A stretch of DNA of 38,979 bases, from sequence record NC_031937.1; one strand, 5' to 3'. A program made the position numbers and the translations under genes. This document shows, in pieces, positions 11,104 through 38,979 of the stretch. Source of the stretch: Escherichia phage LM33_P1. Positions within the stretch are counted from its first letter, which is position 1, and the number at the start of each line of letters is the position of its first letter. The notes beneath the pieces are model-generated. The model made no database searches. It was given only the letters and a program-made list of their open reading frames with translations, and was not told the origin of the DNA.

Positions 11104-11182
11104 GTCTCCATAGCTCAAACGGTAGAGCGGCGGGTCGTGATGGCCTATTGCGATTAGGGTTCGAATCCCCGTGGAGACGCCA
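11104..11182 (+). tRNA. tRNA-like element (7-bp acceptor stem, canonical D-arm, T-loop GGTTCGAATCC, encoded CCA; anticodon arm non-canonical)
   Basis: GTCTCCA...TGGAGAC acceptor pairing, D-arm GCTC-AAACGGTA-GAGC, T-arm TAGGG-TTCGAAT-CCCCG, 3' GCCA; 76 nt plus CCA; no well-paired anticodon stem found by hand (candidate loops UCGUGAU or UUGCGAU). Confidence 0.5.
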
Positions 11183-13167: not shown

Positions 13168-15339
13168 ATGTTTGACCTTAAGAGTATCTGGGGTTCTGAC
13201 ATCGAGACCAACGGTCTCCTTGATACAGTCTCCCAGTTTCACTGTGGGGTCCTGATTAACGCCGAGTCGAATGAGACCCTTAAGTATGGGGTAGCTCCGA
13301 TGGTCGGTATCGTCGGTGGCTTCAAAGAGTATGTGCAGAAGGTGGAAGAGATTGCCGCATCACCTGATGGTATGCTGGTATTCCACAACGGTATCAACTA
13401 TGACGTCCCGGCTATTGACAAGCTGAAGCGTCTGTACTTCGGGAAACGCTTTAACTTCCCGAAACACAAGATGATTGATACCTTGGTGCTGGGTCGCTTG
13501 ATGTATCCCAACATTAAGTTCTCAGACATGGGCGCAGTGAAAGCTGGTCGTCTGCCACCTAAGATGATGGGACGCCAGTCTCTTGAGGCTTGGGGCTATC
13601 GTCTCGGTGAGATGAAAGGTGAGTACAAACACGATTACGTTGCCAAGTGCAAGGCTGAAGGTATCGAATATAAGGCTGGGGACGAATGGTTGTTCCCGTC
13701 TCAGGAGATGCTAGACTATAACGTTCAAGACGTTGTGGTCACACTGGCGTTGTTCAAGAAGTTCCTGACTGACAAGTATTACTTCCAGTCTGAACAGTTC
13801 GCTTTCGACCAGATTTATGCGTTGCGTCTGGAACATGATGCTGCGTGGACCTGTGCGAAGATGGAACGTAACGGCTATCCGATGAACACCGAGATGGTCG
13901 AAGGCTTATATCGTGAACTCACCGTCAAACGTGCAGAGCTGCTGGACAAGCTGCGTTCGACTTTCGGTAGCTGGTACGCACCAAAGGGCGGAAAGGAGTT
14001 CTTCAAGCACCCACGGACAGGCAAGGACCTTCCGAAGTATCCGAGAGTCGTGTATCCTAAGGTCGGTGGCATCTTTAAGAAGCCGAAGAACAAAGCTCAA
14101 CGCTTAGGTCTTGAACCCTGTGAACGCGATACGCGAGACACGATGGAGGGAGCACCATTCACGCCAATCACTTACGTTGAGTTTAATCCGGGAAGCGGAG
14201 ACCACTTAGCGAAAGTCTTGATGGAGCGTGGCTGGGAGCCTGTGGACTTCACTGACACCGGGAAACCTGTAGTCGATGACGAGACGTTGGAACACGTTAA
14301 GTTACCAGACGCAGAGGCTCAGGCTTGCGTAGAGCTGGTCCGTGAGTATCTGGTAGTCCAGAAGCGCATCGGTCAGGCGGCTGAAGGTAAGAACGCATGG
14401 TTGAAACTTGTAGGTCAAGACGGACGTATGCACGGTTCAATCAACCCATGCGGGGCAGTAACCGGACGTGCGACCCATAGTGCACCAAACATGGCTCAGG
14501 TACCTGCTAACGGTGCTCCGTATGGTGAGACTTGCCGTGGTGCTTTCGGTGCAGCGTGGAACAAGAAGGACGGCAAGCCAGACCCTTGGGTTCAAGTAGG
14601 CGTGGATGCTTCAGGTCTTGAGCTTCGTTGTCTGGGGAACCGAGCGGCACCGTTTGATGGTGGCGACTATGCTAAGACTGTGGTAGAAGGCGACATCCAC
14701 TGGGCCAACGCAGTCAACGCTGGGTTAGCACCTAACGTCCCACGCGACAAGTCGAGCCATGACCACGATGCTTTCCGTAATAACGCCAAGACGTTCATCT
14801 ATGCGTTCCTGTATGGCGCAGGGGCCGCTAAGATTGGACTGATAGTTGGTGGTGGTAAGAAGGAAGGTGCGGCCCTGATGAAGAAATTCATTGAGGGTAC
14901 ACCAGCTATCAAGGACCTCAGGGAAGCTGTGAGTAATACGTTAATCTCAGACTCTAAGTGGGTGGACGGAGAGAACATCGTTAAGTGGAAACGCCGTTGG
15001 CTGCGTGGACTTGATGGTCGCCGTATCCACATCCGGTCTCCACACTCAGCACTGAACGCATTACTTCAAGGTGATGGTGCGGTAGTCTGTAAGACTTGGT
15101 TCACTTGGCTGGAGCGTAACCTCGAAGCTAAGGGCTATGTTCACGGGTGGGATGGGGACTTTGCGATTATGGCATTTGTCCACGATGAAGTTCAGGTTGC
15201 TGCCCGCACCATGGAGATTGCTGAGGACATCGTTAAGGTTGCTCAGTCCACGATGCGCGAGGTGGGTGAGTTCTATCAGTTTAAATGCGTATTGGACACC
15301 GAGGGCAAGATAGGCCCTACGTGGAAAGAATGCCACTAA
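13168..15339 (+). CDS. 5: DNA polymerase (family A) with thioredoxin-binding loop
   Basis: Collinear similarity to T7 gp5 including KYPR...PKVGGIFKKPKNKAQR thioredoxin-binding segment; start taken at ATG after RBS AACGGAGG (track ORF begins 13132 inside the hairpin). Confidence 0.93.
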   Translation: MFDLKSIWGSDIETNGLLDTVSQFHCGVLINAESNETLKYGVAPMVGIVGGFKEYVQKVEEIAASPDGMLVFHNGINYDVPAIDKLKRLYFGKRFNFPKHKMIDTLVLGRLMYPNIKFSDMGAVKAGRLPPKMMGRQSLEAWGYRLGEMKGEYKHDYVAKCKAEGIEYKAGDEWLFPSQEMLDYNVQDVVVTLALFKKFLTDKYYFQSEQFAFDQIYALRLEHDAAWTCAKMERNGYPMNTEMVEGLYRELTVKRAELLDKLRSTFGSWYAPKGGKEFFKHPRTGKDLPKYPRVVYPKVGGIFKKPKNKAQRLGLEPCERDTRDTMEGAPFTPITYVEFNPGSGDHLAKVLMERGWEPVDFTDTGKPVVDDETLEHVKLPDAEAQACVELVREYLVVQKRIGQAAEGKNAWLKLVGQDGRMHGSINPCGAVTGRATHSAPNMAQVPANGAPYGETCRGAFGAAWNKKDGKPDPWVQVGVDASGLELRCLGNRAAPFDGGDYAKTVVEGDIHWANAVNAGLAPNVPRDKSSHDHDAFRNNAKTFIYAFLYGAGAAKIGLIVGGGKKEGAALMKKFIEGTPAIKDLREAVSNTLISDSKWVDGENIVKWKRRWLRGLDGRRIHIRSPHSALNALLQGDGAVVCKTWFTWLERNLEAKGYVHGWDGDFAIMAFVHDEVQVAARTMEIAEDIVKVAQSTMREVGEFYQFKCVLDTEGKIGPTWKECH

Positions 15340-35297: not shown

Positions 35298-35441
35298 AAA
35301 CAACCTCAGCCGAATCGGGTTATTTATCATCAGAACGGTATTGAATCATCGAAGGTTGTGGAGGTAGAGGCTAACTACACGTTGACCAACGTATGATAAC
35401 AACTTTGGGTCACGGACGACCCGCTTTAAACTGGAGGTTTT

Positions 35442-35636
35442 ATGATTGAGTTAGACTTCAAGAATGAGGTCCTCAAAGCCTCGCCTATCGTCGGGACCGC
35501 TGCGGCTGATGGTGCCAGTCGGTTCTTCTTTGGGCTAACGCTCAACGAATGGTTCTACGTCGCTGCTATCGCGTACACCGTGGTGCAGATTGGCGTCCTA
35601 ATTTACAAGACGATTAAGAGCGGAGGTAAGACATGA
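35442..35636 (+). CDS. 17.5: Holin (class II, T7 gp17.5-like)
   Basis: Similarity to T7 holin (..LDF.NE..KA.PIVGT..AD...R.FFGL.LNEWFYVAAIAYTVVQIG). Confidence 0.8.
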   Translation: MIELDFKNEVLKASPIVGTAAADGASRFFFGLTLNEWFYVAAIAYTVVQIGVLIYKTIKSGGKT

Positions 35637-35896
35637 CGCAGATGGACTTAGAGAAGTTCCTGTTAATGCTGGACACAGAACGTGCTAGACTAATGCTGCA
35701 AGACCTGCGGGATGACACTAAGCGTTCACCTCAGCTCTACAACGCCATTGAGAAACTGCTTGCTCGACACAACTTTGTGTTAAGCAAGGTGTCTGTGGAC
35801 GAGAAGACGCTGGCGGATATGGAGGCCTTGAACGAAGAGTACGATAAGGTGCTTTCAGCTACTGAGGATAATGACACCGGGTATGGTGTTCAATAA
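35633..35896 (+). CDS. 18: Terminase small subunit
   Basis: Similarity to T7 gp18 (..FL.MLDT..A..ML.DL.D...RSPQLYNAI.KLL.RH.F). Confidence 0.8.
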   Translation: MTQMDLEKFLLMLDTERARLMLQDLRDDTKRSPQLYNAIEKLLARHNFVLSKVSVDEKTLADMEALNEEYDKVLSATEDNDTGYGVQ

Positions 35897-35901
35897 GTGT
35901 T

Positions 35902-35935
35902 AGACTCAAGGTCATCGTCAGGTGGCCTTTATGGT
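35902..35935 (+). promoter_or_regulatory. RNase III-type processing hairpin (AAGGTCA/TGGCCTT) upstream of gene 18.5
   Basis: Third copy of box TAGACTCAAGGTCAT...GGTGGCCTTTATGGTTA; position matches T7 R18.5. Confidence 0.5.
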
Positions 35936-35992
35936 TAACACTGACTAGTGGAGGCGACTCTACGTTAAATCTGATAAACCGGGAGGGCAACT

Positions 35993-36442
35993 ATGCTCGA
36001 ATTTTTAAAGAGAGCGGCTCCGTGGTTACTTGCAGCAGTGATGTTTGCTGGTGGCTACCACACCGCTAACAATAAGTGGGAGGCTAAGGTCAATGCAGAA
36101 TACACCTCGAATCTTAAGGCATCGGAAGATACAAGGCTTGCTGTCCAAGCTGAAGTCAACAAAGTGTCCAAACGGTTTCAGGACGAAATGTCCTCGCTGG
36201 AAGGCAGCACTGATAGGATTATTGCTGACCTTCAGTCTGACAATAAGCGGTTGCGCATCCGAGTCAAACCAACGAGTGGAACCACGCAAAGTGACGGTCG
36301 ATGCTTCATTGATGGTTACGCCGAACTTGACGAACGAGATGCTAAACGTCTTATCGCCATCGGAGTGAAAGGAGACAAGTGGATTAAGGCCCTTCAAGAC
36401 ACTGTGAGAGCCTTACAGCAAGAGAAGGAGGTGACGCATTGA
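35993..36442 (+). CDS. 18.5: Rz-like i-spanin
   Basis: Similarity to T7 gp18.5 (MLEFL....PW.LA...[30 protein letters not shown]...GD.WI.ALQDT.R.LQ). Confidence 0.8.
36093..36368 (+). CDS. 18.7: Rz1-like o-spanin lipoprotein embedded in +1 frame within Rz
   Basis: Embedded ORF encodes signal-like [15 protein letters not shown] with lipobox-like ISGC and C-terminal ..MV.PNLT.EMLNV; start codon uncertain. Confidence 0.55.
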   Translation: MQNTPRILRHRKIQGLLSKLKSTKCPNGFRTKCPRWKAALIGLLLTFSLTISGCASESNQRVEPRKVTVDASLMVTPNLTNEMLNVLSPSE

Positions 36443-38202
36443 GTAAAGACTTAGTGGCGCGTCAGGCGCTAATGACTGCACGTATGAAGTCAGACTTCGT
36501 GTTCTTCCTGTTCGTCCTGTGGAAAGCTCTGTCGCTCCCAGTCCCGACTCGCTGTCAGATTGACATGGCGAAGAAACTATCGGCTGGGGACAACAGGCGC
36601 TTCATCCTACAGGCGTTCCGTGGTATAGGGAAGTCCTTCATTACGTGTGCCTTCGTTGTCTGGAAGCTATGGAACAACCCAGACTTGAAGTTCATGATTG
36701 TGTCGGCCTCAAAGGAGCGAGCCGATGCTAACTCCATCTTCATCAAGCGAATCATCGACCTCATGCCTCAGCTTCAGGAACTCAAACCTAAGCAGGGACA
36801 GCGAGATGCGGTTATTAGCTTCGACGTGGGACCTGCCAAGCCAGACCACTCACCTTCGGTTAAGTCCGTTGGTATCACTGGTCAGTTGACTGGTAGTCGT
36901 GCTGACATCCTGATTGCCGATGACGTGGAGGTTCCGAACAACTCAGCGACTCAGGCTGCACGAGACCGTCTATCAGAGCTTGTGAAAGAGTTCGACGCTA
37001 TCCTGAAGCCGGGAGGTACGATCATCTATCTGGGTACTCCTCAGAACGAGATGACCCTGTACCGTGAGCTGGAAGGTCGTGGGTACACCACTACTATCTG
37101 GCCCGCTCGTTATCCACGCGACAGGAAGGACTGGCAGTCTTACGGCGACCGTCTGGCTCCTATGCTTCAGGAAGAGCTGGAAGAGGACCCTGAGTCCTTC
37201 TACTGGCGTCCGACTGATGAAGTACGCTTCGATGATACGGACCTGAAGGAACGTGAGCTGTCCTACGGTAAAGCTGGCTTCGCTCTACAGTTCATGCTTA
37301 ACCCGAACCTGAGTGATGCCGAGAAGTACCCTCTTAAGCTCCGTGACCTTATCGTAGCCGACTTGGACCCAGCGTCCAGCCCAATGGTCTACCAATGGTT
37401 GCCGAACCCTCAGAACAAGCGTGAGGACGTTCCTAACGTTGGACTCATGGGTGACTCGTACCACACGTATCAGACTGTAGGTTCTGCCTTCAGCTCATAC
37501 ACCCAGAAGATTCTGGTCATTGACCCTAGTGGTCGTGGTAAGGATGAAACTGGATATGCGGTACTGTACCAGCTCAACGGCTACATCTTCGCTATGGAAG
37601 TTGGTGGCATGCGTGGTGGTTATGAAGACTCTACGCTGGAAGCCTTGGCTAAGATTGGTCGTAAGTGGAGGGTCAACGAATACGTCATTGAGGGTAACTT
37701 CGGTGATGGTATGTACCTTGAGTTATTCAAGCCTGTAGCTGCCCGTATCCATCCTGCTGCTGTAACTGAAGTGAAGAGTAAGGGTCAGAAAGAACTCCGC
37801 ATCTGTGACGTTCTGGAGCCTATCATGGGGTCTCACAGACTTATCGTTAACGCTGCCGCTATCGTCCAAGACTACCAGTCAGCCTCTGATAAGGATGGTG
37901 TTCGTAACCCTATCTACTCTCTCTTCTACCAGATGACTCGTATCTCTCGTGAACGTGGAGCATTGGCACATGATGACCGACTTGATGCGCTGGCTATCGG
38001 TGTACAGTTCTTCGTTGAGTCGATGGCTAAGGATGCCAACAAAGGCGAACGTGAAGTCACTGAGGAGTGGCTGGAGGAACAGATGGAGAACCCACGGAAA
38101 GGCTTCGAGTCCATCCACACTGAGTTCTGGGACAATGGGGTCCGGGTAACTCACGATACGGACGACGAGCTTGGACTAGGGTCATACGTTACGTTCCACT
38201 AG
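36439..38202 (+). CDS. 19: Terminase large subunit
   Basis: Extensive similarity to T7 gp19 ([83 protein letters not shown]); apparent TTG start 5 nt after AAGGAGGTGA. Confidence 0.93.
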
Positions 38203-38212
38203 CTGAATGAAT

Positions 38213-38260
38213 AACTATAGGTGAAAGCTGCATTAATAAGCAGCTAGTAACCTATAGTTA
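38213..38260. repeat. Nested palindrome (outer 10-bp AACTATAGGT/ACCTATAGTT, inner 6-bp AGCTGC/GCAGCT) after terminase gene
   Basis: Perfect inverted repeats read directly; arms contain promoter-core-like ACTATAGG. Confidence 0.7.
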
Positions 38261-38296
38261 CTACCAGTCTAACATACTGTTTTACAAGGAGTTTGG

Positions 38297-38319
38297 ACTT
38301 AACTATCACTATAGGGAAG
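38297..38319 (+). promoter_or_regulatory. Phage RNAP promoter (GACTTAACTATCACTATAGGGAAG), right-end promoter analogous to T7 phiOR
   Basis: Consensus match. Confidence 0.7.
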
Positions 38320-38499
38320 ACCCCCGGTTACTTATAGTATTACTATAGTGAATATACATATGCAGACTTTATGCAAGACCTTAGGAGGCAGACTCCGAGT
38401 TCTTACCTAAGGCTTGCACCGATGGAAGGAGGGTGATATTAATCATAATCCCTCCAATACAGATAGTCACCGACCATAGATACAGGAGGTATGTAGCAT

Positions 38500-38658
38500 A
38501 TGGCAAAGACCAAAGCTGTACTTAAAGCTCTGGCGACCAATCGAGCTACATACAGGTTTCTTACTGCTGTTCTACTTGCTGCTGGCGTTACTGCTGGAAG
38601 TCAGTGGGTCGGGTGGGTCGAGACTCTCGTATGTTCTCTGGTCTCTCAGTGTAATTAA
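38500..38658 (+). CDS. Small hydrophobic protein (52 aa) in the gene 19.5 position
   Basis: ATG 9 nt after AGGAGGT; below the ORF-track cutoff. Confidence 0.4.
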   Translation: MAKTKAVLKALATNRATYRFLTAVLLAAGVTAGSQWVGWVETLVCSLVSQCN

Positions 38659-38694
38659 CGCAATCATGATAACAATCAACGAAAGGAGGTAGGG

Positions 38695-38763
38695 ATGGAC
38701 GAGGAGTCTTATGGGTCGTTCTCTGACGAAGATTATCAGACGGAGTGGGAATACGCGCATTGA
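38695..38763 (+). CDS. Possible acidic mini-protein (22 aa)
   Basis: ATG 5 nt after AAAGGAGGT; MDEESYGSFSDEDYQTEWEYAH. Confidence 0.25.
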   Translation: MDEESYGSFSDEDYQTEWEYAH

Positions 38764-38767
38764 AGAC

Positions 38768-38935
38768 CTAAGGTCAGTTCATAGCTGACGCTACTCTACT
38801 GACCTTAGCTACTGTAGTCAAGGACTTTAGGTAACACCTTAAGAGAAGCTCACTTAGGGTCATCCTACTTATTGGTCTATCCTAGTGTCGCCTGACCTAC
38901 GGTCCTTGACCTACAGTGGCTGTGGCCTACAGTAG
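38768..38935. repeat. Right-end region with 10-bp inverted repeat (CTAAGGTCAG/CTGACCTTAG) and CCTACAGT/CCTACGGT direct repeats
   Basis: Same CCTACAGT motif as the left-end array; window ends ...CATCTCACAC resembling the T7 terminal-repeat start TCTCACAG. Confidence 0.5.
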
Positions 38936-38979
38936 TGACGATGAGTTTTGGACAAAAAGTTTGAGACCACATCTCACAC

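Follow-up and report, generated by a model that had tools for sequence, protein, structure and literature searches.

At which codon does translation of the large terminase of Escherichia phage LM33_P1 begin, and does the position of that codon on the stop codon of the preceding spanin gene make terminase expression depend on spanin translation? These questions were addressed in the window, i.e. the whole stretch of 38,979 nucleotides that was analysed (NC_031937.1). Over the 1,001 bases compared around the proposed TTG start, the junction of the two genes matched phage HC12 and the LM33P1 record at 100% identity, and K1F and numerous further K1F-like relatives of T7 at 96-98%. Judged by these matches, the window genome is a K1F-like T7 relative (Kayfunavirus). 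The genes around the junction lie on the plus strand in the order holin, small terminase, spanins and large terminase. The holin gene (35442-35636, PF10746) is followed by the small terminase gene (35633-35896, PF11123) and by gene 18.5 (35993-36442), which encodes an Rz-like inner-membrane i-spanin of 149 aa. The Pfam Phage_lysis match of this protein (E 9.2e-5) is just under the curated cutoff, and its counterparts in HC12, K1F and Pipis are annotated as Rz-like or i-spanin. Gene 18.7 (36093-36368, PF17531 O_Spanin_T7, E 1.1e-25), an Rz1-like outer-membrane lipoprotein spanin, is embedded in gene 18.5 in another frame; its translation contains a lipobox-like LTISGC, and its position matches K1F 18.7 and the Pipis o-spanin. 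Gene 19 (36439-38202, PF22530, E 1.3e-37) encodes the large terminase subunit of 587 aa when read from the TTG.

Several features of the 36439-38202 product identify it as a T7-family large terminase (gp19, TerL). The RNase H-like nuclease domain PF22530 was found at residues 361-468 over the full length of the profile, and a P-loop ATPase motif, AFRGIGKS, is located at residues 59-66. The protein matched the terminase large subunit of PDB 8dgc_E (586 aa) with an E value of 8e-246, residues 1-579 aligning on residues 1-579, and the DNA maturase B of PDB 4bij_A with an E value of 7e-216. The position of the gene after genes 18 and 18.5 is conserved as well.

The start region itself is the 19-nucleotide segment GAAGGAGGTGACGCATTGA (36424-36442). 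It contains an extended Shine-Dalgarno (SD) sequence, AAGGAGGTGA (36425-36434, plus strand), of which all 10 nt are complementary to the 3' end of 16S rRNA. The SD is encoded by the last codons of gene 18.5 (AAG GAG GTG) and ends 4 nt before the TTG at 36439-36441, with 7 nt separating its GGAGG from that codon. The TTG overlaps the TGA stop of gene 18.5 (36440-36442), so that the two genes share the 4 nt TTGA (36439-36442). Upstream, the terminase frame is closed by a TAA at 36385-36387, 54 nt before the TTG, and no ATG, GTG, TTG, ATT or CTG was found in frame between the two; the TTG is thus the first ATG, GTG or TTG codon after the stop. Further candidates in the same frame are GTG 36454 (codon 6), ATG 36472 (codon 12) and ATG 36484 (codon 16). 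The calculated duplex of the TTG site with the 16S rRNA 3' end has an energy of -17.4 kcal/mol, which ranks fourth strongest among the 49 annotated starts of HC12. The values for ATG12, ATG16 and GTG6 are -4.0, -2.5 and -2.2 kcal/mol, respectively (that of GTG6 at usable spacing), and none of the three is preceded by an SD at usable spacing. The 10-mer AAGGAGGTGA occurs twice in the window, compared with an expectation of 0.11, and none of 100 shuffled sequences reached two copies. Both copies lie 4 nt ahead of late-gene starts, the second one before ATG 18441. The SD-TTG pattern is therefore a correct observation and not a product of chance. The sequence-only reading had described TTG 36439 as the sole in-frame start near the strong ribosome-binding site and as overlapping the Rz stop, and both statements were confirmed.

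The database records disagree on which codon is used. Gene 19 of K1F is annotated from the TTG in AM084414 and from the ATG at codon 12, 33 nt downstream, in NC_007456/DQ111067. ATG12 was also chosen for EPr2, and for SH4/SH5 in PMC4925675, which lists 577 aa and gives the SD as TCAGGCGCTt. If ATG12 (36472-36474, plus strand) or ATG16 (36484) were the true start, the terminase would have 576 aa (or 572 aa), and the TTG and its SD would be incidental to the coding of the Rz C-terminus. ATG is the preferred initiator, but the two downstream codons lack an SD, and in two relatives the SD-TTG module stands apart from the Rz coding sequence. The relative L013, whose terminase is 99% identical, has an intact TAAGGAGGTGA-n4-TTG at a distance of 154 nt from the end of Rz. 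Providencia phage EPr2 keeps TAAGGAGGTGA-n4-TTG behind an unrelated gene ending 12 nt before the TTG. Since the module is retained where no Rz coding overlies it, it is not a by-product of that coding. Moreover, ATG12 is replaced by GTG in the relative L109, and homologues with an ATG at codon 1 share MSK...RQA.MT.RM over the disputed stretch. The length of the N-terminus also agrees with the upstream codon. T7-family terminases align with the window terminase from residue 1, and T7, phiYeO3-12 and the 8dgc terminase have 16-17 residues ahead of a conserved GDF motif; the corresponding SDF of the window terminase is preceded by 17 residues when counted from the TTG and by 6 when counted from ATG12. 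A start at ATG12 or ATG16 is thus very unlikely.

To compare the start codon among relatives, K1F-type junctions were gathered from GenBank, IMG/VR and metagenomes in searches that allowed the start codon to begin with any base. The 34 loci represent 19 distinct haplotypes. The TTG and the AAGGAGG core were present in 19 of 19, an invariance of limited statistical weight because these relatives are close (mostly above 90% identity), and the 4-nt spacer before the TTG showed up to four states per site across the same haplotypes. No ATG or GTG variant of the K1F-type junction was found in IMG/VR and the metagenomes, where five metagenome matches turned out to be unrelated genes. Nine changes were observed in codons 2-11, four of them at third positions; about five are synonymous and four are not, which is a weak sign of coding. 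Codon periodicity in this stretch was dropped as proof of translation, nine changes being too few. Gene 19 of K1F (AM084414), HC12, Dev2, U8, HC13 and Pipis has an identical or near-identical junction, with the same TTG, the same 4-nt overlap and a product of 586-587 aa, and shows no material difference from the window. The TTG start is annotated in all six of these and in Salmonella phage 792, so it is already known from the records of sister phages. The literature searched contained neither an experimental N-terminus nor an initiation-site map for a K1F-like or T7-family terminase, and no discussion of the start codon of T7-family terminases was found either.

Relatives with a different start codon place it at the same position. 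PM139, L005, L006 and BDX03P1 belong to the same genus, and their terminases are 94-96% identical to that of the window over the first 200 residues. They start at the homologous codon, but this codon is an ATG behind an ordinary GGAGG SD (-10.2 kcal/mol), and the first ~15 codons have been replaced. The recombinant 5' end of gene 19 in PM139, L005 and L006 reads ATG TCT AAG (MSK) at this position, MSK being also how the window terminase begins when read from the TTG. In these three phages gene 19 adjoins an inserted HNH endonuclease gene; in PM139 this gene, for an HNH homing endonuclease, separates Rz from gene 19, unlike in the window. In more distant lineages (L020, L030-34, L035 and L040), only GTG or TTG is available ahead of the conserved domain.

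Within the genus, the junction of Rz and the terminase gene is a hot spot for insertions. It carries the 154-nt insert in L013 (1347-1500), the unrelated gene in EPr2 (L098, 1-515) and the HNH homing endonuclease in PM139 (L095, 537-974), and it is at this same junction that the first ~15 terminase codons of PM139, L005 and L006 were replaced and the start became ATG.

Because the TTG follows the only SD in the region, has no other possible start between itself and the upstream stop, coincides with the starts of homologues and is supported by curated annotations, translation of the large terminase very probably starts at TTG 36439. We estimate the probability at about 0.88, and the use of UUG as the codon is what we infer from sequence comparison. 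Initiation here is the ordinary SD-led kind at a near-cognate codon. The 30S subunit would be positioned by AAGGAGGTGA within the last codons of gene 18.5, and initiation with fMet-tRNA on the near-cognate UUG would give the 587-aa protein, whose N-terminus would match T7-family terminases in length. Since the comparative evidence favors the TTG, the models that begin at codon 12 are probably an annotation error and 11 residues too short. The main value of the result is accordingly for annotation, as public records are split between the 587-aa model from TTG and the 576-aa model from the ATG at codon 12.

Both forms could in principle be made, a full-length protein from the TTG and an N-terminally shortened one from ATG12 or ATG16, as with the 4A and 4B products of T7 gene 4. 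The two in-frame ATGs lie no more than 45 nt from the TTG and occur in nearly all K1F-type haplotypes, and internal starts are found in T7-like phages, gene 4A/4B being annotated in NC_001604. However, the internal ATGs have no SD, the methionine at position 12 is lost in L109, other terminase lineages lack both ATGs, and the records examined annotate no isoforms for T7-family terminases. We consider two isoforms extremely improbable and retain the single start at the TTG. A Rz-terminase fusion by -1 frameshifting was also considered and was dropped, as the junction has no slippery run and the SD and start codon explain its anatomy.

The comparison with T7 required one correction. The sequence-only reading stated that T7 uses ATG at this gene, which is wrong: the reference record NC_001604 annotates GTG 37370 as the start of gene 19, the surrounding sequence being TAAGGAGGCAAT GTG TCT, or more fully AAGTAAGGAGGCAAT GTG TCT ACT. 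T7 and the window phage therefore both start the terminase with a codon other than ATG. The two phages are also alike in the gene order 18, 18.5/18.7, 19, in an N-terminal tail of equal length, and in a strong SD ahead of the non-ATG codon (TAAGGAGG, -12.1 kcal/mol in T7). They differ in that T7 has GTG instead of TTG and starts gene 19 at a distance of 21 nt past the 18.5 stop with no overlap. GTG starts 6 of the 57 annotated T7 genes, gene 19 included, and TTG starts none of the 57; among the 49 HC12 genes, four start with GTG and two with TTG. A near-cognate start behind a strong SD is thus routine biology and is already present in T7.

Two observations were made on these other starts. The GTG of T7 gene 19 is part of AAUGUGU, so that an ATG in another frame lies 2 nt upstream of it (L087, locus 960-975), and sites of the AUGUG type have been discussed as able to start two frames (PMC9841429). 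The only other gene annotated with TTG in HC12, at position 15250 (L085), encodes a hypothetical protein of 138 aa, has the start context GGAGGGTAAAA TTG and overlaps the end of the DNA polymerase gene; its 30-mer had no exact match in the window.

The overlap with the Rz stop had been taken as a link between terminase and lysis-gene expression. In the strict form of this model, the terminase would be made chiefly by termination and reinitiation after Rz at the overlapping TGA, its output would be tied to and limited by spanin translation, and the weak TTG would block independent entry. The TTGA overlap is indeed found here and in most K1F-type junctions, and it resembles the ATGA-type pairs of E. 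coli, which are likewise co-directional with a 4-nt overlap and an SD within the upstream gene. Four of five tested overlapping E. coli pairs were translationally coupled, with the SD usually aiding reinitiation, and strict coupling is thought to need a structure that occludes the downstream site (PMC6728339). The window differs from those pairs in having TTG, in the absence of a detected occluding structure, and in an overlap that is dispensable in relatives. The start module is retained without the overlap in L013, across the 154-nt gap, and in EPr2, behind the unrelated gene, and T7 has a gap of 21 nt between 18.5 and 19.

RNA folding likewise gave little indication that the site is masked. 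In the single-sequence fold, structure over the SD and start had a z score of -1.27, which is not significant. The alignment fold of 11 junctions gave -13.8 kcal/mol with a covariation term of -0.5 and no compensatory change. Predicted stems involving the SD and the TTG were weak and either not significant or without covariation, and nothing stable or conserved was found that would prevent independent initiation. A search of 35400-38979 against Rfam returned no match. In addition, few genes of the genome have an SD as strong as this one, which would be sufficient for independent entry of ribosomes.

Since the overlap is absent in L013, EPr2 and T7, the SD is strong and no masking structure was detected, coupling cannot be the essential mechanism, as far as these comparisons indicate, and may contribute, at most in a minor way, where the TTGA overlap exists. 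The proposal that terminase output depends mainly on reinitiation after Rz is therefore unlikely, and Rz-linked expression as a requirement was partly contradicted by the L013 gap, the unrelated upstream gene of EPr2 and the lack of a blocking structure. Initiation at the TTG would instead be mainly independent and SD-driven; ribosomes that finish gene 18.5 at the overlapping TGA may also reinitiate there, but this would not be needed.

A weak start codon had further been expected to lower terminase expression. UUG initiation in E. coli ranges from 10 to 100% of that of AUG (10.1101/063800). Within the genus, junctions with TTG and an SD of 10-11 nt have duplex energies of -17.4 to -18.1 kcal/mol (-13.7 kcal/mol in L010, with GGAGGC), and the ATG variants with the plain GGAGG have -10.2 kcal/mol. 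The pairing of a long SD with TTG suggests compensation and not down-tuning. The weaker start codon is probably balanced by the extended SD, and the net output need not be low. The net terminase level cannot be predicted from sequence, and the proposed lowering of expression is unproven.

It is conceivable that non-AUG initiation of the large terminase is a recurrent, selected trait of T7-like phages and did not arise by accident in a single genome. The gene starts with GTG in T7, with TTG in the K1F group and with one or the other in at least six further IMG/VR lineages, where an ATG is often not available. By hand count, which is only suggestive, non-ATG codons start about 10 of the 28 distinct types of start region that have a usable SD, compared with a background of ~10-12% in the annotated genes of T7 and HC12 and of 18% according to our own start caller. 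In lineages with CCT ahead of the TGA, the TTG could become ATG at no cost to Rz, the base concerned being synonymous, yet this was never seen. When the same start caller was applied to 76 loci, non-ATG starts were found in 4 of 11 terL clusters compared with 19 of 107 background clusters from the flanking genes, an enrichment that is not significant in a test where clustering at 85% merged lineages. We therefore regard a selected trait as a tentative and rather doubtful explanation. If it were true, the weak codon, together with the over-long SD in the K1F group, could set the dose or timing of the terminase.

The anatomy of the junction also has a practical side. LM33_P1 and its K1F relatives serve in therapy and as chassis for engineering, and for this reason a change to the ribosome-binding site of the terminase matters. 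Replacing the TTG by ATG, or editing the end of the spanin gene, would alter that site.

Three minor observations were made in the same genome. The embedded o-spanin has ~50 residues ahead of the lipobox Cys, a leader unusually long for a lipoprotein; its annotated ATG (36093) is preceded by GGAGGCTAAGG, and the earliest possible in-frame start is TTG 36045. A stable hairpin is predicted at 35896-35942 on the plus strand, in the intergenic stretch that separates the small terminase gene from the spanin gene (fold z -2.7, equalled by 2 of 200 shuffles). It coincides in position with the putative RNase III site R18.5 annotated in the phiYeO3-12 record, and it would determine where the spanin-terminase message begins. 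One genome paper (PMC4283147) describes T7-like phages as lacking tRNAs. A tRNA-like gene was found at 11104-11182 on the plus strand, flanked by the genes for lysozyme and primase/helicase. ARAGORN identified it as a 79-nt tRNA-Thr (cgt), the CCA is encoded at its end, and it scored 36.7 bits with the Rfam tRNA model (gathering score 29, E 3.6e-6). The same gene occurs in 33 phage records, in which it is labelled tRNA-Thr, labelled tRNA-OTHER/pseudo, or left unlabelled.
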